A stretch of 64,000 nucleotides of DNA from Corythoichthys intestinalis. Lineage: Eukaryota. Position numbers and translations under genes: made by a program. This document shows, piece after piece, positions 1 through 59,282 of the stretch. The first letter of the stretch is position 1, and each line of letters begins with the position of its first letter. Below the pieces are notes generated by a model that saw nothing but the letters and a program-made list of their open reading frames with translations, had not been told where the DNA came from and made no database searches. The stretch is from positions 29,762,661-29,826,660 of the forward strand of contig NC_080410.1 in assembly GCF_030265065.1 (NCBI RefSeq), read 5' to 3'.

Positions 1-1714
1 TCGCCCAGTGCCTCGGCGTTCTCCCTCAGGAGCAAGAAAATGGCCGCCAACTGCTCCTGTTGCACCCTGGGAGGACAACAGGATGGATGGACGCACGGAT
101 GGCAGATGGATGGACAGATGAGGGGGGGATTACAAAGTGGTCATATGATTTTTTGGTTTTTGTTTGTTTTTTTTTAACTCACTGGCTGCCATTGACGGCG
201 ATGGACGCCCAATCCATTTTGACCAAGAGAGGTCCCAGTCAAAACGTATTGGACGTCCATCCCTGCAATAGGACAGAATGATGCAAACTTTTCAATTTAG
301 CCATTTTTGTCCTGAAATGTCATATTTTGAACTCGCTACTGGTTTGAGATAGCGCAAGATTTTATTTTTATTTTTGCAGGTCATCGTTCAAAATCGCGTT
401 CTTTCGCAGACTCGTCTTCCATTGTTTTGCTCACAGTAGTGGATTAGCTGAAAGAAAAAAAAAAGAAAGTGAAAGCTCACCCTAAAGTGACATTCATGAG
501 GACAAGCACTAAAATGTTTTTTTCACCTTATTAATACTACAAAAAGTCATTAATTGGTCGACGAACAAACCTATTGGTACAGTTGGTGTCACATTTATGA
601 AGCTCTTATCAAATGACCCAATTAAAGGAAGGGTTTTTTTCTTAGGAGAATGACTGGCTATGGAGGACCAGGAGCGTGAAATGAAATCACTAAAAAGTGA
701 TAAACTAGTGCTGCAATGATTAATAGAAGAAATCGAGGAATTTGAATAACAAATCGAATTTTGCTGCTTTGATCATTTGTTTAATTCGAGTGACGTATTA
801 AAATGACTTATAAACTGCTGCTGCCTGAGATTGTTTTCGGCAAAAGACATCCATCCGTTCATCCATCATCTATCGCTTAATCCGGGGTCGGGCAGGCACA
901 AAGAAGCAGCAAATCAATCAATTGTTGTTCTTTAATAGTTTTTAGAAAATATTCTTTTGTAGTACCAGTAGTTAGATCCTCATAAATCTTTGTAGAGTTT
1001 CAGGCTATGCTCAGGTATTTTAATTTTGGGGGGGAATTTAGTGCTCGTAAATGAAAGTGCAATTCTGTTTGAAGAAACACTCGGGTATTTAATAATGTCT
1101 TTATTTAAGACATTTTTATTATTTATTTATTGTTTTGAAAATGCAATCTTGGCGCCAATAGATGTGCAAGTCAAAATAAATGTTATTGCAAGCATAAACA
1201 CTTCGTTTCTTTGTTTTACATATCCTAAAATTATTTTGCAACAGATCAAATGATTGTTATCCCATTTCTTGATTAATCAAACTAATTCATTTATAAATTG
1301 ATTACTTAAAGCAGCACTAAGTAACTTTTCAACCTTAAAAATTATTTTCATAACATTTGTGGTATGTTGACTGACATCTTGTTGAATGACACCACTTTTA
1401 AATCTTGAGGGGGTCTGCATCGCTACCACTGCAACTAATTAACTTTGAGACGGGTGGCAGGAACCCTGCCACACACAAAAAAAAAAAACTACAAATGTGC
1501 TGACTGCTTTACGGCATACGTCACTTCCCCCGTTCATTATAAAGACAGAAGTTGATGCCAACGCTTTTTATTGGCCCGGCTTTCACTCACTTGCATGGCG
1601 CCCCCCCCCCCCCCCCCAACAGAACTCGTCAGCACTGACCAGTTCGAGTGGGGTGGGGGGGTTAGCCACACGGTTGCTAACTGTCATATGCTATTGGTGA
1701 GCCCGTAGACTTCA

Positions 1715-2615
1715 TAATAGTATTGACAAATCAGATCGGTCATGCACTACGCCTCACCTTAAAGTAGGGGGCCGCCCACATCAAGAGGAGCTATTCACAA
1801 ACACGCACGCAGCGATCTAACGCCGGATTTCTGTTGAAAAAGTACAAAAGCTGTACCACATACAAACAGGAAGGATTGTCTCAGGAGTGATTTGTTCGAG
1901 GATTCAAGGTACTAATTATTATATTTTTCATACCATGCATGCATTTTGAAACGTTGTGGAAAAAAAAAATCAATGGGAGAAATTAGCCGCCACTGCATTG
2001 GCATCATATTTCGCAATATTTACGGAAAATAAATGCTGACTGCACTTTTTTTTTTTTTTGCTTTTACCCAAGAATCGAAACTGTTTTACCTCTATATCTA
2101 TAAAGAATTCAGGGATTTAAGCATTTATTCACAAGAATTTTCACCAGAAAAGCTCTGTTTACATAAGGCGGCCTTTAGCTACATTCAATAACAGACTAGC
2201 ATTGTACTTCGACATGTTTAAGTAAAATAAATGCTAACTGCACATTTTTTTTCTGCTTTTAACCAAGAACTGAGACTGTTTTACGTCCATATCTATAAAG
2301 AAATCAGGGATTTAAGCATTTATTCACAAGAATTTTCAACAGAAAAGCTCCGTTTACATGAGGCGGCTGCTAGCTACATTCACTAACAGACTAGCATTGT
2401 ACTTAGACATATTTACGTAAAATAAATGCTAACTGTACAATTTTTTTGCTTTTAACCAAGAATTGAGACTGTTTTACGTCCTTATCTATAAAGATTTCAG
2501 GGATTTAAGCATTTATTCACAACGAAACGAAAAAAAAAGCTTGTCTGTGATTCCACTCTGTCAGCTTTGAAAGCCTCGCCAACAATGCAGACCCCCTATT
2601 TAGCGGCCCTGCGTC
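1715..2615 (+). repeat. Composite interspersed repeat, copy 1: unique 5' module, then about 3 tandem 170-180-bp units, then a 3' module ending ...caatgcagaccccctatttagcggccctgcg
   Basis: The 5' module (1725..1915) is about 90% identical to 17745..17945. Tandem units start near 2040, 2220 and 2400 (core ...aaataaatgctaactgcac...ttttaaccaagaattgagactgttttacgtccatatctataaagaattcagggatttaagcatttattcacaagaattttcaacagaaaagctc...). The 3' module matches 18520..18600. Confidence 0.7.
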
Positions 2616-3376: not shown

Positions 3377-3476
3377 CTTTGCTCTTCCTCCAGTTCCTCC
3401 TTGCTCATCAGCGTCACCATCTTGTTGGCTTTCTTTCCAGGCGTGAATGTCACTTTTTCATCTTCTCCCGCCGCGC
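3377..3476 (-). CDS. mxra7: mxra7 coding exon 3. Acceptor ttgcag|GC at 3478/3477; candidate donor CAA AG|gtcagc at 3376/3375. Alternatively reads through to the stop at 3319.
   Basis: Phase 1 from exon 2 gives ...G AAGEDEKVTFTPGKKANKMVTLMSKEELEEEQR, matching human MXRA7 ...FSFKYSPGKLRGNQYKKMMTKEELEEEQR. Human continues with further exons (VQKEQLAAIFKLM...) that were not found in 1..3300, so they may lie beyond the window start. Confidence 0.6.
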
Positions 3477-3848: not shown

Positions 3849-5173
<1,325 letters not shown>

Positions 5174-5203
5174 ATCCACACATGTAAATGTGAGCATTTT
5201 TAC

Positions 5204-6185
5204 CATTTAGCTCCAGTTCCGCTTGCTCGTCCGCTGGCGCCACCACGTCAGCCGCCGGGAGTTTCTCCTGTTCGGATCTTAGCGACAGCACTTGCACAGG
5301 TTCACCCACGGTCCCTGGAAGTTGTTCAGGCACAGCCCTTAGGTCATTGTGAGGTTCTGGTTCTGACTGGACAAGAGGCTGTAGTTCTGAAACTGGTTTT
5401 ATGGACTGCTCTACTTCTGGGACCCCACGTGCCACTGAAGCAGGCATAGAAACTGGTGCGACAGCATCTAGTTTTGGTTCTGAAGAGGGTTCTGCATCCG
5501 GAAGTTGTTCCGGTACCGTTTCAACGGGATATTCAGAATCTTGTTCCAGAGTGTGACAGGATAATATGGCAGATTCGGGTTGGATAACCACTTCTGGTTT
5601 TGGTTTGGAGCACAATTCTGCATCCGGAAGTTGTTCTGGTACAGCGTTGACGGTGGATTTGTAGACTTGTTCCAGAGTACAACATGGTTCTATGGCAGAC
5701 TCTAGTTGAGTAACTGTTCCTGGAAGTGGCTCTGGTGCTAAAGGTGTTTCATGTAAAGATTCTGGCTGAGGGACAGGTTCTGGTGTTGAAAGAGGTTCTA
5801 GCTGAGGTTTAGTTTCTTGAACTGGATCTGGTGCTGAAAGCGTTTCAAGTACAGGTACTGGCTGAGAGACTGTTTCTGATGTTGAAGGTTGGTCAAGCAC
5901 AGGTTCTTGCTCTGGCTCTGATTCGGCGACAGCAGTTTCCTGCCCTGAAGGTGATGCTAAAACTAGCTCAGATTCAGAGCCAAATTCATCTGGCAAAAGC
6001 TCTGAAACTATGGGTTTTGTCTGTGCTTCTATAAGTGGGTCTGGCACTGAAACAGTTTCCTGGAAAGACGCAGATTGTGAGACAGGTTCTGATCTGCAAA
6101 CTGGTTCAACTAAGTTGTCTTCTGACTGGGATTCTTGAACAGGTTCTGAATCCTTTCTGGAAACCGCTTCAGGTTGTGGGCCCGC
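5204..6185 (-). CDS. mxra7: mxra7 coding exon 2: 327-codon Pro/Glu/Val-rich low-complexity exon. Acceptor cctag|GCG at 6187/6186; donor AAT G|gtaaaa at 5203/5202.
   Basis: Open frame of ORF 5127..6047(-) extends upstream to an AG acceptor. Phases match exon 1 (phase 0 in, phase 1 out into exon 3). Contains an internal tandem duplication of about 130 bp (repeated ESAI..C.TLEQ..VPEQLPDAE motif). Human MXRA7 has a short Pro/Glu-rich middle section in the equivalent place. Confidence 0.55.
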
Positions 6186-7154
6186 CTAGGAAGATTAAAT
6201 GTCAAACTCAGTCACAAATCGGCAGTGAAGGATAATAATTTGGAGCTATTAACAACGATAGACTTGAATGAGCAAACATGGGTGATCTGGGAAGCACAAC
6301 CTTCCCCGTCCTGTCAATTGCAGGTCTGGTTGTTGACAAGCTGCCACCACCTGCTGCTGACACACAACCACACATGGTACGTCCCCTACATATGAACACT
6401 GTCAAGTTTCTTGAAACTCAACACCCTCCCCCAACGCCACAGTGTACCCTAACAGACATGAACACCAGGTGTGAGCATCACCACCAAATACGGTCGCTGC
6501 TCATCTTTGCAAAATTGCCCATTGGACCGCAAGGAAACTTAAGCCTAAGTGCAAGCTGCCATTTTTATTGTGGAATTCGGCAAAATTCTATTTCTCATTG
6601 GTCGGTTTTAGTAATGTTTCATTCTGTTGAGATTTTTTTTTTTTTATTCTCACAAGATAATGTTCATTCTTTCAGAGCCCATATTCACAGTTTTGGAGAA
6701 TTTCGACAATTAAAATGACCCGTTTAAACTGTAAAAGCTCAAGATTTTGGTCAAATCCAAGTCCAAGTCAGTGGGGGACAATTAAGAACATGAGTGCAAT
6801 CACGAACCGATTCTTTTAATTTAGGGCTCATTTGTTCATGTTTCAAATCTCCATCCAAATGAGATTCTCTGCTTTAATAAAAAGGTTCTTTTATGTTTTG
6901 TAACATACCTCTAAATATGATCTGTTCCAAAGGCCCGTTTCATGAACTTTCAAACACACTTGTTGCAGTCAACTCGATCGAGTACTCGCAATGGGAGATT
7001 TATAATCAGGTTTTAACTTGTAAAGTCAATTAACGTAGAACCAACTGGCGAATAACAAACTGTGTCAGTTGCTTTCTCTTAACGTGAAACTAGTTAAAGT
7101 GATCTGAAAATTTGAAAAACAGATTATTCTTTTGGAAAGTTGCAAGAAGACAAC

Positions 7155-7349
7155 CTGAAGCTCAGCTGCCAAACGTCTGGACGGAGGCTCATCGTCTGCG
7201 CCGGCGTGCGTGACTGAGGCGGCGGTCAACGGGGACCGGACGACCGGGGAGTCGGTCTTTCTATTCCTTCGGCGGAGGAGAACGGCGGCGGCCACCAACA
7301 GGGCTAGCGCGGTGACAGCGACGACGCTCGGCTCCACTTGAAGCTCCAT
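7155..7349 (-). CDS. mxra7: mxra7 coding exon 1 (ATG at 7349 on minus; phase-0 donor CAG|gt at 7155/7154)
   Basis: Translation MELQVEPSVVAVTALALLVAAAVLLRRRNRKTDSPVVRSPLTAASVTHAGADDEPPSRRLAAELQ is a hydrophobic N-terminal TM/signal segment resembling the human MXRA7 N-terminus (MEAPAELLAALPALATALALLLAWLLVRRGAA...). In frame within ORF 7065..7448(-). Confidence 0.6.
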
Positions 7350-7624
7350 GACAGCCGAGCGCACGCACGCATTGACGACGCGCGCAAATTTATACTCCAG
7401 AGTCAAGCTTTGAAACGCCACTCGACAGGCATCCGGCAAACTTTTCAAAATAATGTCGCGTCATAATTTGTTACTTCCGGGAAACCAAAATGAAATAGCA
7501 AAATAAAAATGAAATGTTACCTTAAAAAAGTTGAATTTTAATGTCAAAACTGAAAAAAACGTACACTTAAATGTCAACAAATTCTAGAATGACGTTATTT
7601 AACATTACACTTTTGATTTTAGCA

Positions 7625-8775
7625 TTCCTGGTCTTCTGTATTAGCAGGGGTGAAAGTGGGCCAGAACGATCAGGAACGTAGTTCCGGTATAATATTCAGG
7701 GCCGGAACGTAGTTCCGGTATACGGACCTTTGATTCCGAAAATATGATGGCAACTGTCAAAACGCAATGTAGAAAAAAAAATACAAAGCAGCCACACATG
7801 CATTTCATCTCCAAGAAGAAAACAATATACCAACATCAGATTTACATACGCAAGTGTTAACAACAAGCATAATAAAGTGCTTGTGTAGCATAATCCATTT
7901 CCACCGATATTTATTATTTATTTTATTCCACGGACTGCATGGAGGTTTCCCCAGCTGCTGCAGTGAGTCTGAGTCTGACGATGACAAGTCAGGTCAATGT
8001 GCAAATGCAAGCAGCAAAGCAAAACACCTGGACTCATGTATCCGTTCAATTGGCTGACATACTGACATGTGATCACCAGAGATAGTTAGCTCTGATTGGT
8101 TCAAATGTGCATGTTTTCTGAAACAGCAAAAAAAAATAAAAAAGGTAAATGCAACAGAAAATGGATCAAATCTTTAAGAGCAAGGAAAGAGTTAAGGAAG
8201 CTTATTTATCATATTTAGTTTTATTTGCTCTGATCGGGAGGTTCAGAACACCTTAGCTGTCAATGTGCACTTTGGACTAATATTTGTTCCTTTATGTTAG
8301 GCTACTAATTTCCTTATGGTTTAAAAAAGTCAATGTTTGCCCAATCTTCAAAATATATTCCATTTCACTCTGCATACTATAAGTCATTTGTACTTATTTT
8401 TCTGAATGTATCTTACTTACATCTTTGTTTAAAACAACACAAAAAAAGCAAATGTTTCATTATCTTCAATTTTAATATACATCCTATATTCTTAGTAGTT
8501 AAAATTGAGATTTGGCATTTAGTATGTGAGGAAATGAGGGAAATGAAAATTAGGAGATGGAAGTTCCGGTTATAGCTGTTTAATTTTGCAAATCATTGAA
8601 AAAATAAAATTTTGAATGAAAATCAGTTTTTGTTTGTGTTCTAGAAATAATTGACCAAAACAGTTTTCTTTGCATTTCAGTAGTTTCGACCCCCCCCCCA
8701 AAAAATATATAAATGAATAAAATTTCTGGTTCCATGGCGACCTTCACGTCGGGGAGTTCCGGCAAGAAATTCTAA
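7625..8775 (+). repeat. Unclassified about 1.15-kb interspersed element, copy A (uninterrupted), between the mxra7 start and the jmjd6 3' end
   Basis: Collinear with about 85-90% identity to 55170..55390 + 57365..58123 + 59283..59480 (copy B). Termini caggggtgaaagtgggccagaacgatcaggaacgtagttccgg ... ggcgaccttcacgtcggggagttccggcaagaaattctaaccac. No ORF. Confidence 0.7.
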
Positions 8776-9795: not shown

Positions 9796-9818
9796 TCATC
9801 ATCTTCAGCATGACATTA

Positions 9819-10136
<318 letters not shown>

Positions 10137-10183
10137 TCACGAACGGTACGGCACCCCGCATGATCTAAAGGTGGGTCACTGAC

Positions 10184-10572
10184 CTGTATGGCGGCCGACG
10201 CTTCTCTCCGGCGAACTGAAAGAGGTCATCAGTGAAAAAGACTGGCACTTCGTAGTCTTGCAGTAGTTTTCGACGTTTGGCGTGCTCGCCGTAGCTGCTG
10301 TCAAAGATGTAAAGCGGGCTATCGTCGCGGGTGCCCTCTAGGTACTCCACGTAGTATTTCATCTTCATCTTGACGGAGTAGCCGTCGTTGTCCTCTCCGC
10401 ATTTGAACTTCTGGTTGCGGTACTTGCGTTTCAAACGCTCCAGGGTCCATTTTTGCTGCGCGGGCCACGACTCCTGACAGCGGAGGAGAACCACGGGCTT
10501 GTAGGGCCTCTCGAAGCGCTCGATGAACTCTTCAGGGCTCAGACGTACCGCGTCCACGCGTTCCACATTGTC
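10184..10572 (-). CDS. jmjd6: jmjd6 coding exon 2
   Basis: [129 protein letters not shown](R) matches human JMJD6 residues ~45-185. Acceptor cacag| at 10574/10573; donor TAC AG|gtcagt at 10183/10182. Confidence 0.92.
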
Positions 10573-11388
10573 CTGTGGCGAAAAAAAGCACCTTTTCAAT
10601 TTCTTCCCCTTGGGAACTATCTTACAGACACGTCTGCTTTATGCATAGCAAATTGCTGTTCCACATTTGAATGAACTGGTTATGATTGGGCAATGGTTCA
10701 CTGGCAAGAGTGACCATGTTATGTACGATACAAAATCCAGATCACCAGCTGACTTTTTCTATTTCCGCCAAAATTTAGATTCCCATCAATTCACGCAAAG
10801 AAATCCTTGTCAAACTTGTTGATGACGTGGATTGTAAAACCAAGTAACAGTATTCAGAAAAGTTAAATTCAGTTGACATAGGTTTAGATCAATTTTGGTG
10901 TTCAAAATCTCGCATAGATCTTCAGAATGAGCTATTATTCTTGTTCTTGGTGAAATTTGATGTGATCAGTTTCCTGTCGCGTGATCAGCAATAAGATGAA
11001 TGAGCGGACGCACTCATTGAATAAGATGGAAATGGCCCATTTCATGCTTTTTTTTTTTTTTTTTTACCTAAAAACTAATTTCCTGATGACTAACTCATTC
11101 AATGACAGCAATCGGCGTCTAAATTCAGATGTACTGTTACGGCACGAAAGCAAAATTGATTTGGACGTCCATCGCTGTCATTGGCATTGAAATGTACTCA
11201 TTCAGAAACATGATCATTTAATACCAGCTCTCCAATTTTTTTGGTAACATATTCTGTAGTGTTGTAATTGAGTAAATGTTCGTTTAGATTACGTCGTCAC
11301 ATTGAGAATATTCTCGAAAGAGCGTCGATCGACGTGATACGTTAGCCACAGCTACCTAGCATTAGCTTATCCTAACGTGCCACATTAC

Positions 11389-14315: not shown

Positions 14316-14553
14316 CTGGGAGCGGGAGTGGCTCTTCCAGGCGTGCTTGCATCCCGCTGTGGTGCTGAGGTCATCCTGAGCGACGACGCCAATGCGCCGG
14401 CGTGCATGCGCAACTGCAGACGAAGCTGTGAGGCCAACGGTCTACACGACGTGCTGGTGGTTCCTCTTACCTGGGGAGAAATCTCCCCACATCTGCTCCG
14501 GCTTCCACATCTCGACCTTATTTTGGCGTCTGACGTTTTCTACGAGCCCGATG
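14316..14553 (+). CDS. mettl23: mettl23 coding exon 3 (methyltransferase-16 family fold, SAM-binding region)
   Basis: LGAGVALPGVLASRCGAEVILSDDANAPACMRNCRRSCEANGLHDVLVVPLTWGEISPHLLRLPHLDLILASDVFYEPD(D), compared with human IGAGVSLPGILAAKCGAEVILSDSSELPHCLEVCRQSCQMNNLPHLQVVGLTWGHISWDLLALPPQDIILASDVFFEPE. Acceptor cccgcag| and donor GAT G|gtagcc (phase 1). Confidence 0.88.
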
Positions 14554-14645
14554 GTAGCCAGCAGGCACTTGCTAGTATTGATTTCTGCTCTGAAGGGAGT
14601 AGAAAGTTGTACTTCCTCCTAACCACACATTGCTTTTGTCTCCAG

Positions 14646-14730
14646 ATTTTGAAGATATCCTGGTCACAGTTGCTTTTCTTCTGCGAAAAAACCCAGACGC
14701 GGAATGTTGGGTGACATACCAAGAACGAAG
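14646..14730 (+). CDS. mettl23: mettl23 coding exon 4
   Basis: (D)FEDILVTVAFLLRKNPDAECWVTYQER(S), compared with human DFEDILATIYFLMHKNPKVQLWSTYQVRS. Acceptor tctccag| and donor AG|gtgagg (phase 2). Confidence 0.88.
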
Positions 14731-26772: not shown

Positions 26773-26955
26773 AAACACTTCACGTTTTCCGATTCCATCT
26801 GGTGCTTTTTAGTTCAATGAAGCACCGTCACATTTGGCGGAGGATGAAAACTTGGATTTGATTGGAATCGGTTTGCCTAATTCAAGATGAAATGTGAAGG
26901 TTTTCTTGCATTCTGTAATAAGTTGTGTAATGTTGTGACATTCATTTGTGTGCAG

Positions 26956-27650
26956 GCCTGGCGTGTCCCCCAACAGAGAGCAGCAGCGATGGCGGGAAGG
27001 GGCAGAGCGAACGCCGCGCTCCTGGCAGAGCAGTCGAGGTGGAAGGGGTGGCGGGACACCCCGAGGCGGCCCCCCTCATCATGCGTCTCCTGCTTCCATC
27101 CCACAATCGTATGGCCAGCGGGGCGGAGGCGCCTCCCGCAGCCGAGGCCCCCGCCTTCCCGCCCGACACGTGCCAGAATCGCACGTTCATCAGCTTCATC
27201 CGAGGGAACGAGCGCTTCCCAAAGGCTCACCCGAGCCGGCGGCCGATGAGGGGAGAGCCATCGAAGACCCTCCGCCGGGCAAAATCGGTGACGAGGAGCG
27301 CGCCCAGAGTAGCTCCGGGCCATCCCTTGAGCAAGCGACATCGCCGGAGCAGCGAGGGGGCGCCTCTTCCACCCGCGTACAGCACGCGTCGGCATCCCCC
27401 CGGGAAGCCTCGCCTCCTGCCGAACGACCAATAGAGCGCAAGTCCTACTCGCTGGCCCGGAGGAGTCGCTCGCGGCCATCCGAGCCGGGCGGCAAGCGGA
27501 CCGTGTCGGTGGAGGAGGCGGCGGCCCCCGAAGATTCGGGGATGGGTGGGGGCGCGGAGGAGTTGGACCGGGACGTAGCTCGGCTGAGTCTTGTGTCCGG
27601 GCGGACTTGGAACCAGAGCCCAGCCTCGTACGTGCACCCGGAGATGAGAG
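26956..27650 (+). CDS. casc3: casc3 coding exon 7 (large GC-rich exon)
   Basis: Frame of ORF 26948..27733. Contains PIERKSYSLARRSRSRPSE (human PIEKKSYSRARRTRTKVGD) and ELDRDVARLSLVSGRTWNQSPASYVHPEMRG (human LEQDVAQLNIAEQNWSPGQPSFLQPRELRG). Acceptor tgtgtgcag| and donor AGA G|gtaaga. Confidence 0.88.
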
Positions 27651-28804
27651 GTAAGACTTGCACATTATTCAAAATGGGATCATTTGATGACGGAGTGCCA
27701 AAATTTTCTATTATATTGAAATACAGTATATAAAAGCATTCTTAAATCTATACAAAAATTTGGCACTCCTGGTCCTTAAAGGAACCTGTGTTTTAAATTA
27801 CCTGTTAACTCTTTAATCCTTAAAGTGCCTGTGACACGAAAAAGCATGTTTATTTCATAATACACGCGGTATTTTATGCTCCTGAATGATATGGACCGCT
27901 TGGATGTGTGTGGAAGCGATCGCTATATTTATTTAGTTTTTTGAATCCCGCGCCAGGAAAATGAGTGACTTCCGGCTTCGGTCTTGCACTGAGGAGGAGG
28001 GCGCTGTGACGTGTACGGTAGAAGACGTCCTCTTCACGCTACAGTGTACTGTTGTGTATGAGGACGAAAGATTCAGCGGATTTTGCGGATTAATACGTTT
28101 ATTTTTCGCATCACGCCAGCCAAACGGCTGCGGAAAAATCATTCTGTATGAGGGAGAGGCGTATGCGCCTTTTTGGAGTTTCAAAAGGTTCCCATTCACC
28201 GTGGATATTTACTGTGGGACCATTGGACTTACGATGAAGTGAGGAAACATCTTGTTTTGTATTATGTCAAATACGAATACAGCGATTACAAAGTAAACAC
28301 TACAAACTTCCTTTAAATGAAGGACTACTTACGTTTGATCATTGATAGGCATGTAAAAAGCTCTCCTAATGCATTAGCAGCAGCACGTTAGCTGCGTTAG
28401 CTCCAGCCACCCTCCTCCGGGGAACGAACTGTAAATTGAACTCCGCCGGGTGGTTTGCCGATCCGCTAAGACATTCGACAACCGGGTCGTCATGTCAAAT
28501 AATCCAGGATAGCTATGTGTGATTTTCCGCTTTGAAGACTTTGAAACATCACTCTGTTCGGGTTAGCATGTCGGCTAGCTGTCACGCCTTCTGGTTTGTT
28601 TACATTCTCCGAAGCCGGGGAAGGGAAATGACATATGTCCGATTTAGGTGTCATAAAATATTGTTCGGGAGGTGCGACAGTAAAGGTGAAGTCGACAGTT
28701 TTGACCATTATGGAGTAATTTTGCCATGTCGTCCTGAATAAATGCATTTTTATTATTTCATATTCCATTCAGCACAAGACTGTTATTTGTCATGACGATG
28801 CCAT

Positions 28805-30700
28805 TTATTTAGCAATTGGGGAAAATAATAATAATAATAATAACAATACATTTTATTTATAGCGCGCTTTTACCGGTGCTCAAAGGCGCTTTACAGTTGA
28901 GGAAGAAAATAAATAAAGCTCACACAATGTGGGCAGTAGACAATAGAGAAAGAATTACAAATTAAAAGCTAGTTTAAAAAGATGAGTTTTTAACAATTTT
29001 TTGAATGTGGAAATATTAGAACAGGTGCGGATGGTTTTAGGGAGTGCATTCCAAAGTGAGGGGGCAGCAACGGAGAAGGCTCTGTCCCCCCAAGTACGGT
29101 GTGTTATTTGTGGGGGCAGTGCGAAAATGTTTCCATTAGATGAGCGGAGGTGACGGGAGGGGGTGTGGGGACAGAGAAGGGCCGTGAGGTAAGGAGGAGC
29201 CAAGTTATTGAGTGCTTTGTATGTCAGAAGGATGATTTTGAAATGTATCCTGTGTGAGATGGGAAGCCAGTGCAGTTTGTGAAGGACGGGGGTAATGTGA
29301 TTCCTGTAGGGGGTACGGGTGAGAAGGCGTGCAGCGGAGTTCTGGATATATTGTAGTTTTTTGAGGAGTTTGGCTGGAGATCCAAAAAGAATGCTGTTAC
29401 AATAATCGAGTCTGGAGGTGACGAATGCATGTATGAGGGTTTCTGCAGCAGAGTAGGTGAGGGAGGGGCGGAGACGGGCTATGTTCTTGAGGTGGAAGAA
29501 GGTAGTTCTGGTTATGTGGTTGATGTGCTGGTCGAATCTTAGTTTATTGTCGAAAATGATACCTAGGTTGCGGGAGTGTGTTGAGAGAGGGAGGGTGCAG
29601 TTGTCGATGGTGAGGGTGAATTGACTGTTATTTATGTGAGCTGTAGGGTCTATGATGATTATGTCCGATTTGTTGCTGTTAAGTTGAAGATAGTTAAGTT
29701 GCATCCAGGATTTGATTTCGCTGAGGCATTTGTGAAGTGTAGATTTGGTGCTGTGTGAGATGGTTTTAGTGGAGATGTATATTTGTATGTCATCGGCGTA
29801 GCAGTGGAATTGCAGTCCAAATTTTCGGATGATCTGACCAAGGGGGAGGATGTAAAGAATGAAGAGGAGGGGGCCAAGAACTGAACCTTGGGGGACACCT
29901 TGTGCTATGGAAATAGCAGGGGACGTGCAGTTGTTAATGCTGATGAATTGTTGTCGGCCGGTGAGGTAGGAGTGGAACCAGGAAAGTGCAGTGCCAGTGA
30001 TGTGTAGAGACTCTAGTCGGGAGAGCAGAATGGTGTGGTTGATTGTGTCAAAAGCAGCAGTGAGGTCCAGGAGGATGAGGATGGTGAGTTGTCCGGAGTC
30101 CGCGGAGAGTAGGATGTCGTTGGTTACTTTGAGAAGTGCTGTTTCTGTGCTGTGTTGTGAGCGGAAGCCAGATTGGAGAAGTTCAAATAGCTTATTGTCG
30201 GTAAGGTGGGTTCGGAGTTGTGACGCAACTGCCCTTTCCAGAATTTTTGATAGAAAAGGCAGATTTGAAATGGGTCGGTAGTTGGTCGGGATATCGGGGT
30301 CTAGACCAGTTTTCTTTATGATCGGCGTGATGGCAGCCAGTTTGAGAAGTTGGGGGACAGAGCCAGAGCGGCGGGAGGTGTTAATGATATCAGTGATAAG
30401 TGAGGAGATGACGAGGAGACAGTCTTTTATTAGAGCAGAGGGAATGGGATCTAGGGTGCAGGTGGCAGTTTTCATTCCAGACATAATGGTTTCAAGTTGA
30501 GTGGATGTTATTGGAGAAAGCTCAGTGAGTTCCTGGATAGTTGTGGGCGTAGAGGCAGATGGCGGGGAAGGGGAAGGTGGAGCAGTAAACTGGATCCTGG
30601 AGGTGTTTAGGTTACTGTAAATGTTGTCTATTTTTGTTTGGAAAGATGAGAGAAATAATAAACACTTTTCAGGAGTGAATGAAGTAGAATACTTCAAATA
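28805..30700 (-). mobile_element. L2/CR1-like non-LTR retrotransposon (LINE), 5'-truncated, in casc3 intron 7, antisense to casc3
   Basis: ORF 28955..30697(-) of 580 aa has reverse-transcriptase motifs (LLDLTAAFDTI, FHCYADDIQIYIS, SRNLGIIFDN). The 3' end on minus is a short microsatellite (rc of aataataataataataataacaat at 28825..28850), typical of L2-clade tails. Confidence 0.8.
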
Positions 30701-34735: not shown

Positions 34736-36262
34736 AGTGGTACCACTACATCACACAGATTAAAAATTTGTCAGATTTATCTAAAACCACACAAACATTT
34801 AATAGGTTGTCATATTTTAATGAGGATAGCATTCAAACAAAGACAGAAGGGGGGGAAATTAAACTAAACCCTCTGCCTAATTAGACTTAAAGAGCAATTG
34901 AAACCAATTTTTACCAAACTTTTTAAGTCAGGTGTGTACCCAATCACTGATGAGTGGTTTAAAGCTGCCCTGCCCACTATAAAACACACTGGTAAGAAAT
35001 GTCTTGATGAGAGGCATTGTGTGATGTGCATCATGGCTTGGTCAAAAGACATGTCTAAAGACCTGCGATCAAGGATTCTTGATTTGTATAAAGCTTGGAA
35101 AGGATACAGAACTATCTCTAAAAGTCTGGATGTTCATCAATCGGCAGTCAGAGAAGTTGTCTACGAATGGAGAGAGTTTGGCACTGTTGCTTCTCTCCAA
35201 AGGAGTGGCCGTCCACCAAAGATGACGCCGAGAGTTCAGTGCAGAATACTCAACAAAGAACCTCAGAGTGTCTGCCAAAAAGAGACTTCCAGAAATCACT
35301 GGCACAGTCCAATATCTGTGCACACATTATCTATATGTAAAACTATGGCCAATAATGGTGTTCATGGGAGGACTCCACGGAGGAAGCCACTGCTATCTTA
35401 AAAAACAACAACAAAAACATAGTTGCTCGTTTTAATGTTCGCAGAAATGCACTTGGACACTCCAAGTTTTGGCAAAATATTTTGTGGACTGATGAGACCA
35501 AAGTTGAATTGTTTGGGAGTAACACACAATGTCATGTGTGGAGGAAAAATGAAACAGCCCAACACCTCATCCCCACCGTGAGCATGGTGGCGGGAGCATC
35601 ATATTTTGGGGCTGTTTACTGCCTCAGAGTCTGGACAACTTGCAATCATTGATGGAAAAATGAATTCAGAAGTTCATCAGGATGTTTTGCAGGAAAACCT
35701 GAGGCCGTCTGTCAGACAGTTGAAGCTAAAAAGAGGATGGATGCTGCAACAAGACAATGATCCAAAGCACAGAAGTAAATCAACTTCAGAATGGTTTCAG
35801 AAGAAAAATACTCATTCTGGAGTGGCCAAGTCAAAGTCCAGACTTGAACCCCATTGAGATGCTGTGGCGTGGCATGACCTAAAGACAGCGATTCATGCCA
35901 GACATCCCAGTAATCTGACTGATCTACATCTGTTTTGTAGAGAAGAATGAGCCAAGATTAGTTCCAATCAATGGGCCAGCATTATCTGCAGCTACAGGAA
36001 GTGTCTGAAGTTATTGCCGCCAAAGCGGGGGCCACAAAATATTGTGATGGTTCATTTATATTTTTCCCCCTTCCATCATTGTTTGCATACTATCCTCATT
36101 AAAATATGAAAACCTATAAATGTTTGGGTGATTTTAGTAAAAGCAGTTTTTTCATCTGTGTAATTTTGACAAAGATCAGCTCACATTTGATGTTTTTATG
36201 CAGAAATATGAGAAATACCAAAAGGTTTAGATACTTTTTCATACCACTGTAAATAAAATCTA
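34736..36262 (+). mobile_element. Tc1/mariner family B, near full-length but frameshifted, immediately 3' of casc3
   Basis: TIRs tacagtggtaccac... at 34736 and as reverse complement at about 36245..36262. Transposase pieces 34898..35401 (paired HTH region, ...YKAWKGYRTISKSLDVHQSAVREVVYEWREFGTV...) and 35606..35857 (DDE region, ...[20 protein letters not shown]...). Confidence 0.8.
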
Positions 36263-41100: not shown

Positions 41101-41507
41101 TCAGGCTCCGAAACGGCCGACGTCGGCAAGTCCGTCTTCCACCTTGCGGTGCGTGCGTGCATGTTTCTTGAGTGTGTCGCCATCGCTGAAGGTGCGGCGA
41201 CACACGCCGCAGCGGTACGGACGTTCGCCCGTGTGGATGCGCACGTGGCGCCGTAGGTTACCTCTCTGGCTGAAGCTCTTGGTGCAGAAGGTGCAGCGGT
41301 GCGGCCGCTCGCCCGTGTGCGTGCGTACGTGTCGCCGCAGGTCTGCCGACTGCGCGAATGATTTGCAGCACCAGTCGCACGCGTAGGTTTTGCGCTTCTG
41401 TTCCAGGTGTAGGCAAAGACGAGATGCCTGGGAGAAGACTTCGCTGCAGCGGGGGCACTCGTACACCGAGGCGCCTGCCGCCGCTGCTGCCGTCTCGCCA
41501 AAATGCC
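41101..41507 (-). CDS. Terminal exon of the same ZNF gene: 4 C2H2 fingers, stop at 41103..41101. Acceptor follows a T18 tract: ttttacccgcag|GG.
   Basis: (G)HFGETAAAAAGASVYECPRCSEVFSQASRLCLHLEQKRKTYACDWCCKSFAQSADLRRHVRTHTGERPHRCTFCTKSFSQRGNLRRHVRIHTGERPYRCGVCRRTFSDGDTLKKHARTHRKVEDGLADVGRFGA*. Has canonical C-x2-C-x12-H-x3-H spacing and TGERP linkers. Acceptor phase (needs 1 nt) matches the phase-1 donor of the 50243..50465 exon, so the predicted protein is about 210 aa. Confidence 0.5.
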
Positions 41508-41698
41508 CTGCGGGTAAAAAAAAAAAAAAAAAAGTCAGGAAATGATAATAGCGGCTGCCATTTACGGCGCTAGACATCCAATTCACTGTCTATCGTCGTC
41601 AATGGTAGTGAATGAGTCAAGAACATGAAATGCAATCAAACATTTTTGATTCAGCTAATAGAGGTGTATTGATTTATTTGTATCGATTAATCTATTAC

Positions 41699-52224: not shown

Positions 52225-53310
52225 TCGCTAGACGCAGGGGTTTTCAACCCAGTCCTCAAGGCACACTGTGGGTCCTGGTTTTTGTTCCAGCCGATCCAGC
52301 AGAGACAGTTGAACCAATGAGGCTTCTGCTAAAACAAGCCACACCTGACTGCAATCAACTGATTGCACTTGTAAAACACCAGATTGGGGAAAAAGTGTTG
52401 TCATCTTGTTTGGTAAGAATGAAATCCTGCACCCACAGTGTGCCTTAGTGGAATAGGTTGGGAACCCCTGCGCTAGAGAGCATTTGGATGATCCAGAGGA
52501 GGACTGGGAGAATGTGTTATGGTCAGATGAAACCAAAATACTTTTTGGTAGAAACACAGGTTCTCTTGTTTGAAGGAAAAAGAATACTGAATTGCACCAT
52601 ACCCACTGTGAAGCATGGGGGTGGAAAAATTATGCTTTGGGGCTGTTTTTCTGCAAATGGATGACTGATCTGTGTAAAGGAAAGAATGAATGGGGCCATG
52701 TATCGAGAGATTTTGAGTGAAAATCTCCTTCCATCAGCAAGGGCATTGAAGATGAGATGTGGCTGGGTCTTTCAGCATGGCAATGATCCCAAACACACAG
52801 CCAGGGCAACAAAGGAGTGGCTTCGTAAGAAGCATTTCAAGGTCCTGGAGTGGCCTAGCCACTCTCTAGGTCTCAACCCCATAGAAAATCTGCGGAGGGA
52901 GTTGAAAGTCCATATTGCCCAACGGCAGCCCCAAAACATCACTGCTCTAGAGGAGATCTGTATGGAGGAATGGGCCAAAATACCAGCAACAGTGTGTGAA
53001 AAGCTTGTGAAGAGTTACAGTAAACATTTGGCCTCCGTTATTGCCAACAAAGGGTACATAACAAAGTATTGAGATGAACTTTTGGTATCGACCAAATACT
53101 TATTTTCACCCATGATTTGCAAATAAATTCTTTAAAAATCAAACAATGTGATTTTCTATTTTTTTTCACATTCTGTCTCTCATGGTTGAGATTTCCCCAT
53201 GTTGACAATTACGGGCCTCTCTAATATTTTCAAGTGAAAGAACTTGCACAATTAGTGGTTGACTAAATACTTATTTGCCCCACTGAAGCTAACATTGCTA
53301 CGTTCCTTAA
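52225..53310 (+). mobile_element. Tc1 family D, 3' half, with a roughly 230-bp palindromic insertion at 52228..52460
   Basis: Transposase C-terminus in ORFs 52458..52664 and 52686..53072 (...[72 protein letters not shown]...ANKGYITKY). 3' TIR ...cactgaagctaacattgctacgttcc at about 53283..53310. The inserted segment has inverted ends ggttttcaacccagtcctcaaggcacactgtgggtcc / ggacccacagtgtgccttagtggaataggttgggaacccc. Confidence 0.7.
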
Positions 53311-58123: not shown

Positions 58124-59282
58124 TGTTTTTGTTTTAGCTCAGATAATGGAACAGTATGACATATCCTATCACGCCTATGCAGATGACACACAACTGTACA
58201 TTTCTGTGTCCCCACATGATTATAGTCCCTTAGTCTCCCTGAGTAAATGCATTCATCAAATCAATGAATGGATGTGTCAGAATTTTCTCCAGTTAAATGT
58301 GGAGAAGACAGGTGATCATTTTTGGGCCAAAAAAGGAAAGGTCAAAGATAAGCAGGCAACTTAGCACAATGTCACTTACAGCTACAAATCAAGTCAGAAA
58401 TCTTGGCGTAATTATTGACTCAGACCTAAAATTTGATAGCCACCTAAAGTCCGTCACTAAATCCGCTTATTACCACCTAAAAAATATAACCAGAATTATT
58501 GGGCAGCTGACTCAACAAGACATGGAAAAACGTATGCATGCATTCATTTTCAGCAGATTGGACTATTGCAACGGTATATTTACGGGTCTTGATAAAAAAT
58601 CAGTCAGGAAGCTGCAGCTAGTACAGAATGCTGCAGCCAGAGTCCTCGCAAATACAAGGAAGCTGGACCACATTACACCGGTTTTGAAATCGCTACACTG
58701 GCTTCCAGTGAGTCAAAGGATAGACTATAAAATACTACTGCTCGTCTACAAAACACTTAATGGCCTTGGACCAAAATACATGCTTGACTTGTTAGATTCC
58801 TATGAGACATCTAGATCCCTAAGGTCGTCTGGAACCGGTCTTCTGCATGTTCCAAGAACAAGAACCAAGCAAGGTGAGGCAGCATTTAGTTATTATGCTC
58901 CTCACCTCTGGAACAAGTTACCTGAACGTCTGAAGTATGCTCAAACTGTTAGCTCTTTTAAATCAGGGCTAAAAACGCTTTTGTTTAGCACTGCATATCC
59001 ATAACTGGCTATATATTTCAATCTACCTGCTTTCTATTCCTCTTGTGCTTATCTCCATTGTTGATTTCAATTTTTATTAGTAGTAGTAGTTTTTGTTTTA
59101 TTTTTTGTTTTATTTTTATTTATTTATTTTTATTCTATTTGTGATTAAATGCGATCTTTTGTCTTGGTTTTTACGTTGTATTGATTTAAATGTGATTTTT
59201 ATGATCTTCATGTGATGTAAAGCACTTTGAATTGCCTTGTGTTGAATTGTGCTATATAAATAAATTTGCCTTGCCTTTGCCT
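58124..59282 (+). mobile_element. L2-like LINE 3' fragment (RT C-terminal part plus 3' UTR), inserted into copy B of the 1.15-kb repeat family
   Basis: ORFs 58104..58364 and 58297..59004 contain YADDTQLYIS and downstream RT/thumb motifs (ISRQLSTMSLTATNQVRNLGVIIDSDLKFDSHL). Insertion boundaries are defined by comparison with uninterrupted copy A (about 8530/8580). Confidence 0.75.

Follow-up and report, generated by a model that had tools for sequence, protein, structure and literature searches.

Locus and gene model

The window considered here, meaning the whole 64,000-nucleotide (nt) stretch that was analyzed, comes from the scribbled pipefish, Corythoichthys intestinalis (NCBI RefSeq assembly GCF_030265065.1, contig NC_080410.1, positions 29,762,661 to 29,826,660, forward strand). 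On its minus strand, next to jmjd6, it carries a gene of the MXRA7 family that is cut by the window start, and our subject is the second coding exon of that gene, which is long, rich in Pro, Glu, Val, and Ser, and contains tandemly repeated coding units. Coordinates are window positions and are collected in Table 1; a caret marks a splice junction.

Our results identify 5204-6185 as a real, correctly delimited, and probably constitutive second coding exon of this jmjd6-adjacent gene. The 982-nt exon runs from 6185 to 5204, between ...aatcttcctAG on its 5' side and GTAAAA on its 3' side, and stays open in frame 1 through all 327 codons, with 6-30 stops in each of the other five frames. Its G+C content is 49%, compared with 39-43% in the introns on either side. 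It begins in phase 0 and ends with one additional base (982 = 327 x 3 + 1), in frame with exons 1 and 3. Splicing the predicted exons yields a product that is a 100% prefix match to isoform X1 of RefSeq (XP_057716586.1, 463 amino acids [aa]), and splicing through the alternative exon at 447 reproduces isoform X2 (XP_057716587.1, 426 aa). RefSeq therefore already annotates exon 2, in a gene labelled "cell surface glycoprotein 1-like", and the boundaries, strand, frame, and splice phases proposed for the exon in the initial annotation were right. Coding on the plus strand across the exon was considered and rejected; the longest plus-strand open reading frames (ORFs) reach only 66-67 aa, and the reverse frames contain 6-30 stops.

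On either side of exon 2, the gene has the parts expected of its family. Exon 1 encodes a predicted membrane-anchor helix, SVVAVTALALLVAAAVLL, followed by RRRNRK, and its donor, CAG^gttg, was also found in Phycodurus and Syngnathoides. The translation of exon 3 finishes ...TFTPGKKANKMVTLMSKEELEEEQ(R), and the position of this exon matches that in orthologous gene models. Beyond the window start, isoform X1 goes on with EVTEGDMEEQLKLYSL, and through the alternative exon at 447 isoform X2 loses the MXRA7 helical domain.

Identity of the MXRA7 copy

The assignment to the MXRA7 family, which had been proposed from sequence alone, was confirmed. The spliced product matches the Pfam family PF25473 (MXRA7_helical) at residues 406-447 with E = 5.2e-12 and 46.1 bits, against a gathering cutoff of 22, even though the window edge truncates the domain that is complete in RefSeq X1. 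In addition to the N-terminal membrane helix, the product has the KK..T.KEELEEEQR block and the conserved sequence ...PGK...(L/M)M(T/S)KEELEEEQR^VQxEQLAAIF, in which the exon junction falls within the Arg codon.

Family-wide searches separated two teleost sequence types, A and B. Type A, with the signature F.PGKK..KFETLMTKEE plus IFLLLRENQEALGEVTEGDMEEQLKLYSL, takes in the pipefish gene, which also has the forms F.PGKK..K(F/M)..LM(T/S)KEE and IFLLLRENxEALG; its best non-syngnathid match is Lates "Si:ch73-366l1.5", at 88% identity over the C-terminal profile. Type B is marked by LKY.PG.R..Q.E.MM.K plus IFQLLK.N.ETFG. It is nearer to tetrapod MXRA7 in the motif preceding the KEELEEEQ block (LKY.PG and FKYSPGK, respectively), and several sources give the name mxra7 to this copy. 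The gene in the window is thus the jmjd6-linked teleost type A paralogue (si:ch73-366l1.5-like) and not the copy usually annotated mxra7, so that the name mxra7 given in the initial annotation holds for the family but not for the gene. Short C-termini like that of X2 (RVPE, RVAE, RAEE, RSSEY) recur among other teleost models of both types.

The neighborhood tells the same story. In Dissostichus, Syngnathus scovelli, and Syngnathoides, the type A orthologue has a JmjC gene immediately upstream, and the jmjd6 and mettl23 surroundings in our window are the conserved vertebrate MXRA7-JMJD6-METTL23 neighborhood. Type B adjoins an RNF157-like gene in Stigmatopora, and the type B protein of Esox carries the source name srsf2a. 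Given these jmjd6, srsf2a, and RNF157-like neighbors, together with the human gene order, MXRA7-JMJD6-METTL23-SRSF2, both teleost copies would be duplicates of an ancestral MXRA7 region. From Stigmatopora argus and S. nigra, only type B MXRA7 was recovered (264-270 aa, beside the RNF157-like gene), and a long type A protein of these two species was absent from all search results; their type A copy may be unannotated, mis-modelled, or lost.

Repeats within exon 2

Exon 2 contains tandem repeats that were duplicated in frame. Compared with itself, the exon matches best when shifted by exactly 126 nt (42 codons); 89 of 126 bases (71%) are then identical, while 200 codon shuffles gave a mean of 59.7, a standard deviation (sd) of 1.8, and a maximum of 66. 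The peptides of the two copies, PGTVTQLESAIEPCCTLEQVYKSTVNAVPEQLPDAELCSKPK and PEVVIQPESAILSCHTLEQDSEYPVETVPEQLPDAEPSSEPK, are 60% identical, with ESAI..C.TLEQ and VPEQLPDAE common to both. A duplication of roughly 130 bp had been claimed at 5616-5740 and 5486-5610; this duplication was confirmed, but with a period of 126 nt, which is a multiple of 3, and with copies about 15 nt from those positions, at 5598-5723 and 5472-5597. In an exon alignment of four species, copy 2 is the partner of the single unit found in the three other syngnathids. Next to it lies another tandem pair, not mentioned in the initial annotation, whose period is 96 nt (32 codons) and in which 72 of 96 positions match, compared with a codon-shuffle mean of 48.5 (sd, 1.6; maximum, 54). 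Both periods are multiples of 3, and both lie about 15 sd above the codon-shuffle mean.

Short motifs also recur. The counts of EPV, of SEP, and of PEPV, PEPL, PDPV, and PDPL combined were higher in exon 2 than in all 1,000 residue shuffles, and the count of PEQ equaled the shuffle maximum. The PEP and VPE motifs, which the initial annotation had singled out as recurring, exceed the shuffle mean but fall within the shuffle range (VPE, 4 copies, with a shuffle mean of 0.8 and a maximum of 5; PEP, 3 copies, with a mean of 1.1 and a maximum of 5). Across the family, exon 2 is built on a 20-codon (60-nt) unit, PEPVxETLxAPEPVPETxTQ, of which Phycodurus has 3.9 copies (86% matches), Syngnathoides 3.6 (72%), and S. 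scovelli 7.1 (94%). The 96-nt pair of Corythoichthys is a decayed form of this unit, comprising 20 + 12 codons.

The 126-nt duplication is private to the Corythoichthys lineage and old. Counted by iterated local alignment, the 42-codon ESAI..C..LEQ unit occurs twice only in Corythoichthys and once in all 11 other syngnathids compared, and the derived VPEQLPDAE is common to both Corythoichthys copies and absent from the orthologues; together, these observations place the duplication in the Corythoichthys lineage. Synonymous divergence (dS) between the copies is about 0.79, an estimate from 42 codons only, compared with 0.77 for the whole exon between Corythoichthys and Phycodurus. Copy 1 matches the single unit of Festucalex at 20 of 30 residues, about as closely as it matches copy 2 (19 of 30). 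For the 96-nt pair, dS is 0.20 and nonsynonymous divergence (dN) is 0.35 over 32 codons, which is too noisy for dating. Exon-wide, dN/dS ranges from 0.42 to 0.78.

With copies that are 71% identical and a dS near 0.79, the duplication shows no sign of the ongoing replication slippage that had been suggested for this exon. In the one Corythoichthys assembly, near-identical copies within exon 2 were sought and not found, the copies present being 71-76% identical. The only recent expansion that we saw is the 60-nt array of S. scovelli.

Length of exon 2 across teleosts

Exon 2 was compared at the DNA level in four syngnathids only, where it measures 982 nt in Corythoichthys, 988 in Phycodurus, 907 in Syngnathoides, and 1,078 in S. 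scovelli (302-359 codons). All four exons are open, have a length of 1 mod 3, and share the AG^GC. start and the ..N G^gt end; the latter is also kept in Dissostichus and Salvelinus. Beyond these four, length was followed in proteins as the spacing between the membrane helix and KEELEEEQ, using an exhaustive family-representative search and a 254-aa profile search. A search with the C-terminal profile returned only proteins of 123 aa or less, which reflects its preference for query-like lengths, and was unusable for full lengths.

Usable protein models were available for 11 syngnathids, and in every one of them the spacing lies between 293 and 446 aa. These species cover both subfamilies (Nerophis, Dunckerocampus, and Doryrhamphus; Hippocampus, Vanacampus, Festucalex, and the seadragons), and their protein models can be aligned along the whole of exon 2. 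In seven other type A teleost proteins that were measured (Channa striata, Pseudoliparis, Anarhichas, Salvelinus, and three transcript-derived proteins), the spacing is 163-219 aa. Rough hand estimates gave about 197-286 aa for Monopterus, Channa argus, Archocentrus, and Muraenolepis and about 372 aa for Lates japonicus; the measured value for Hoplias is 411 aa. Among the 11 type A proteins of non-syngnathid percomorphs and salmonids that were measured or estimated, 10 have a spacing of 286 aa or less, the exception being Lates japonicus. As for the exon itself, that of Dissostichus is about 423 nt (about 141 codons) and ends PTN G^gtgaga, that of Salvelinus is 232 nt (77 codons) and accompanies an extended exon 1, and the proteins of other percomorphs imply a middle exon of about 110-200 codons.

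These comparisons change the picture that the initial annotation had drawn. Human MXRA7, at about 200 aa, was the wrong baseline, given that the type A middle exon is already long in other teleosts. Nor is the enlargement specific to this species; it is found in all 11 syngnathids and, from genomic DNA, in S. scovelli as well. The comparison of exon lengths across teleosts that had been proposed as a check did find that syngnathid exons are long, but as a family-level shift within a linker whose length is variable. From the sequences compared, a Pro/Glu/Val-rich middle exon appears to be ancestral in teleosts, at about 77-200 codons and more in a few lineages. We read the syngnathid lengths as one ancestral lengthening, which would amount to about 1.5- to 2.3-fold relative to most type A proteins of other percomorphs and of salmonids. 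Other expansions are independent of that in syngnathids: Hoplias has 12 copies of the 8-aa SEPTPGPV in a protein of 485 aa, Lates japonicus has a type A protein of 439 aa, Muraenolepis has four 14-residue repeats, and Paramormyrops, with a type B-like motif, has five 14-residue repeats in proteins of 402-444 aa.

Properties and possible role of the linker

The product of exon 2 is predicted to be an intrinsically disordered linker, in agreement with the disordered spacer suggested by the initial annotation. It consists of 15% Pro, 15% Glu, 11% Val, and 11% Ser (52% together), and has a net charge of -49, an isoelectric point of 4.05, and only 4 aromatic residues among 327. AlphaFold, run with a 10-sequence alignment, placed a helix at residues 7-32 with a predicted local distance difference test (pLDDT) score of 90-95 and a further helix beginning at residue 418. 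Across residues 66-392, which correspond to exon 2, it predicted no secondary structure, with a pLDDT of about 36-53.

We consider it highly probable that exon 2 is a length-labile coding array, duplicated in frame, that encodes the disordered linker of an MXRA7-like protein. The protein would have three parts, namely, an N-terminal membrane-anchor helix, an acidic linker of about 390 residues, 327 of them from exon 2, and the C-terminal MXRA7 helical domain. Within the array, in-frame duplication of the 20-codon unit and of larger blocks, with replication slippage or unequal recombination as the probable mechanism, would have led to copy numbers that differ between teleost lineages. The ancestor of crown Syngnathidae would already have held most of the extra length, and the private 42-codon duplication would have been added later in Corythoichthys, its copies having since diverged to 71% identity. 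Selection would maintain the reading frame, along with a few anchor motifs and an acidic, Pro-rich composition, and would tolerate change in length and sequence (dN/dS, 0.4-0.8). The dN/dS values of the exon, alongside a frame that is kept family-wide, point to weak constraint on its sequence.

The linker may act as a flexible spacer that determines how far the helical domain can extend from the membrane to which it is tethered. Among teleosts, the length of the linker ranges from about 160 to about 450 residues between a membrane helix and C-terminal helices that are fixed, which suggests that the middle serves as a spacer in which sequence matters little. Both the linker and the helical domain would face the cytosol, which we infer from the positive-inside rule, given the acidic residues before the helix and RRRNRK after it. 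In the MXRA7 literature, we found expression and knockout phenotypes only and no molecular mechanism; nothing was found on the evolution of the MXRA7 linker or on MXRA7 in Syngnathidae. To the extent of titles and abstracts, si:ch73-366l1.5 appears only within work on other topics.

Comparison with related systems

The pipefish gene resembles human and tetrapod MXRA7 in its N-terminal membrane helix, its acidic low-complexity middle, and its C-terminal ...PGK...M(T/S)KEELEEEQRVQxEQLAAIF..., as well as in having JMJD6 and METTL23 as neighbors. It differs in the pre-helix motif, which is FKYSPGKLRGNQYK in human and tetrapod MXRA7 and TFTPGKKANK in the pipefish, and in its linker, which is 2-3 times longer and made of the PEPV-type 20-residue unit; the tetrapod and mammalian representatives found are about 150-330 aa long. 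With other teleost type A genes, such as zebrafish si:ch73-366l1.5, it shares the sequence signature, exon layout, jmjd6 adjacency, and Pro/Glu/Val-rich middle, but in most of those species the middle exon has about 77-200 codons, as opposed to 302-359 in the four syngnathids. The type A repeat unit also varies by lineage, with 8 aa in Hoplias, 14 in Muraenolepis, and 20 in syngnathids. Teleost type B MXRA7 (Stigmatopora, Esox, Symphorus) belongs to the same family and has the same overall architecture, but its middle is Ser rich rather than PEPV rich, its length is 245-270 aa, and it does not lie beside jmjd6.

More broadly, exon 2 is reminiscent of coding minisatellites and length-variable linkers, such as mucin-type repeats and the PEVK segment of titin. 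Like those systems, it has in-frame head-to-tail units, a Pro/Glu/Val bias, predicted disorder, and a copy number that varies between related species. Unlike them, the pipefish copies are few and old (71-76% identity).

Alternative explanations

An argument can be made that exon 2 is only partly coding and that an internal intron, donor, or acceptor leaves a much shorter linker. The RefSeq model of S. scovelli takes in no more than 149 nt of exon 2, read in the +1 frame up to an internal donor, and Phyllopteryx has a shorter X2 isoform (356 aa, compared with 414 aa). Yet the conserved frame is open for 302-359 codons in four species where the other frames are full of stops, the exon length is always 1 mod 3, the long linker is present in protein models from 11 syngnathid species, and genomic mapping found exon 2 to be single and intact in Phycodurus and Syngnathoides. 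The S. scovelli model itself relies on weak donors (GTCTGG and GTCGAT) and yields a Q/N/L-rich out-of-frame peptide, so that it looks like an annotation artefact, and we regard partial coding as improbable. Still less credible, to the point of being negligible, is that the duplication was created by assembly of a repetitive region. Low-complexity repeats are prone to mis-assembly, and apparent frameshifts occur in the Dissostichus assembly and the Lates japonicus model; however, there are 37 mismatches between the two 126-nt copies and 24 between the 96-nt copies, the frame is intact throughout, and copies this divergent exclude collapsed or duplicated reads.

A more serious alternative is that there was no syngnathid event at all, and that linker length drifts everywhere, with syngnathids occupying the upper part of a continuous teleost distribution. 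Drift is partly true given the independent expansions in Hoplias (485 aa), Lates japonicus (439 aa), and Paramormyrops (402-444 aa); Channa argus, Archocentrus, and Muraenolepis reach 318-323 aa despite short C-termini, and birds have PEEPRQ repeats. Nevertheless, the spacing is at least 293 aa in 11 of 11 syngnathids from both subfamilies, as opposed to at most 286 aa in 10 of 11 other percomorph and salmonid type A proteins, and the alignability of the whole exon among syngnathids favors one shared ancestral lengthening. We thus view drift without a syngnathid event as the less likely account, though one with appreciable weight. At the other extreme, the roughly twofold lengthening on the family stem could have been adaptive, altering the reach or valency of the tethered helical domain in a kind of tissue remodelling peculiar to the family (e.g., brood pouch, dermal armour), with continuing changes in copy number, such as the 7 near-identical units of Syngnathus, as functional tuning and not drift, a proposal that we find very improbable.

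Several points count against a length-labile array that was lengthened once in the ancestor of syngnathids. The S. scovelli model described above is one of them. In addition, the branch of the lengthening is only roughly placed, as the comparison was made without close non-syngnathid Syngnathiformes; full inclusion of exon 2 in C. intestinalis rests on RefSeq models and frame conservation; the dS and dN/dS values are noisy, coming from short repeat-rich alignments; and the spacer role and cytosolic topology are deductions from sequence.

Annotation of orthologues and other features of the window

Exon 2 has left its mark on deposited gene models. In S. scovelli, XP_068509546.1 (185 aa) uses a GTCTGG donor in exon 1 and a GTCGAT donor in exon 2 and reads exon 2 in the +1 frame, while the genome holds an intact 359-codon exon 2 at 6150-7227 of its locus sequence (5001-8606). 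This record is probably a mis-annotation, although it possibly represents real alternative splicing. In Dissostichus mawsoni, exon 2 (28650-29072 of its locus sequence) has an apparent 1-nt frameshift, starting in frame 0 and ending in frame 2; the exon is missing from the deposited model. The Lates japonicus model switches between PEPV-type and QNQYQ-type reading frames within exon 2. The frame switches in Dissostichus and Lates japonicus are probably indel errors in repeat-rich sequence. Names are equally inconsistent: orthologues appear as "cell surface glycoprotein 1-like", "FILIA-N KH-like domain-containing", "protein TsetseEP-like", "cytadherence high molecular weight protein 1-like", "E3 ubiquitin-protein ligase RNF12-B-like", and "matrix-remodeling-associated protein 7-like". 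Low-complexity similarity has thus given one gene at least six RefSeq names that are unrelated to one another.

Table 1. Features of the MXRA7-like gene and of the rest of the window
Feature	Position	Strand	Details
Exon 1, coding part	7349..7155	minus	ATG at 7349; donor CAG^GTTGTC; phase 0; encodes MELQVEPSVVAVTALALLVAAAVLLRRRNRK...
Exon 2	5204..6185	minus	982 nt, 327 codons plus 1 base; acidic Pro/Glu/Val/Ser-rich; identical to RefSeq X1/X2
126-nt unit, copy 1 (5' in mRNA)	5598..5723	minus	peptide PGTVTQLESAIEPCCTLEQVYKSTVNAVPEQLPDAELCSKPK
126-nt unit, copy 2	5472..5597	minus	peptide PEVVIQPESAILSCHTLEQDSEYPVETVPEQLPDAEPSSEPK
96-nt (32-codon) tandem pair	5701-5796/5797-5892	minus	Tandem Repeats Finder (TRF) period 96, 76% matches; upstream of the 126-nt pair in mRNA
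Degenerate third copy of 96-nt unit	6010..6105	minus	64% identity to reference copy (repeat-family search)
Exon 3, 100 nt	3476..3377	minus	(G)AAGEDEKVTFTPGKKANKMVTLMSKEELEEEQ(R); acceptor ttgcAG, donor GTCAGC; ends in phase 2
Alternative exon start	444..447	minus	cag^C TAA; Ser completed, then stop; X2 ends ...EEEQS
Canonical last coding exon, first 66 nt	1..66	minus	VQQEQLAAIFLLLRENAEALG...; MXRA7 helical domain, cut by window start
jmjd6 exons (JmjC/Cupin_8)	9816-10599	minus	immediately upstream of the MXRA7-like gene
Methyltransf_16 (mettl23-like) exon	14328-14714	plus	beyond jmjd6
Tc1-like DNA transposon, about 1.3 kb	3849-5174		intron 2; end 29 nt from the exon-2 splice donor
Terminal inverted repeats of Tc1-like element, nested	3849-3897/5126-5174; 3902-4001/5029-5128		96%; 91%
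Decayed DDE_3 transposase ORF	4629-4868		within the Tc1-like element
AT-rich 195-nt tandem repeat	2016-2522		intron 3; 2.6 copies, 88% matches
G+C-rich stretch	26877-27733	both	long overlapping ORFs, up to 262 aa
Reverse-transcriptase ORF, 580 aa	28955-30697	minus	LINE-like (long interspersed nuclear element)
Sleeping-Beauty/Tc1 transposase remnants	34898-35401; 52686-53072	plus
C2H2 zinc-finger exon	41101-41586	minus
235-aa ORF	58297-59004	plus	no Pfam match

The Tc1-like element in intron 2 was considered as a source of exon 2 and rejected, since it stops outside the exon and the orthologous exons occur in species without such an element seen in their compact loci. Further along the window, the G+C-rich stretch may be a CpG-island or first-exon region; a Pfam scan of one of its frames (26948-27733, plus strand) gave no match. 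The 235-aa ORF resembles, by eye, the C-terminal part of the 580-aa reverse-transcriptase ORF.

Significance

The main use of our findings lies in annotation. The boundaries and frame of exon 2 would allow correction of at least three damaged models (S. scovelli, D. mawsoni, and Lates japonicus), along with the inconsistent names under which this gene is filed. For the biology of these fishes, the significance is modest: what exon 2 appears to record is ordinary tandem-repeat-driven length evolution of a disordered region.

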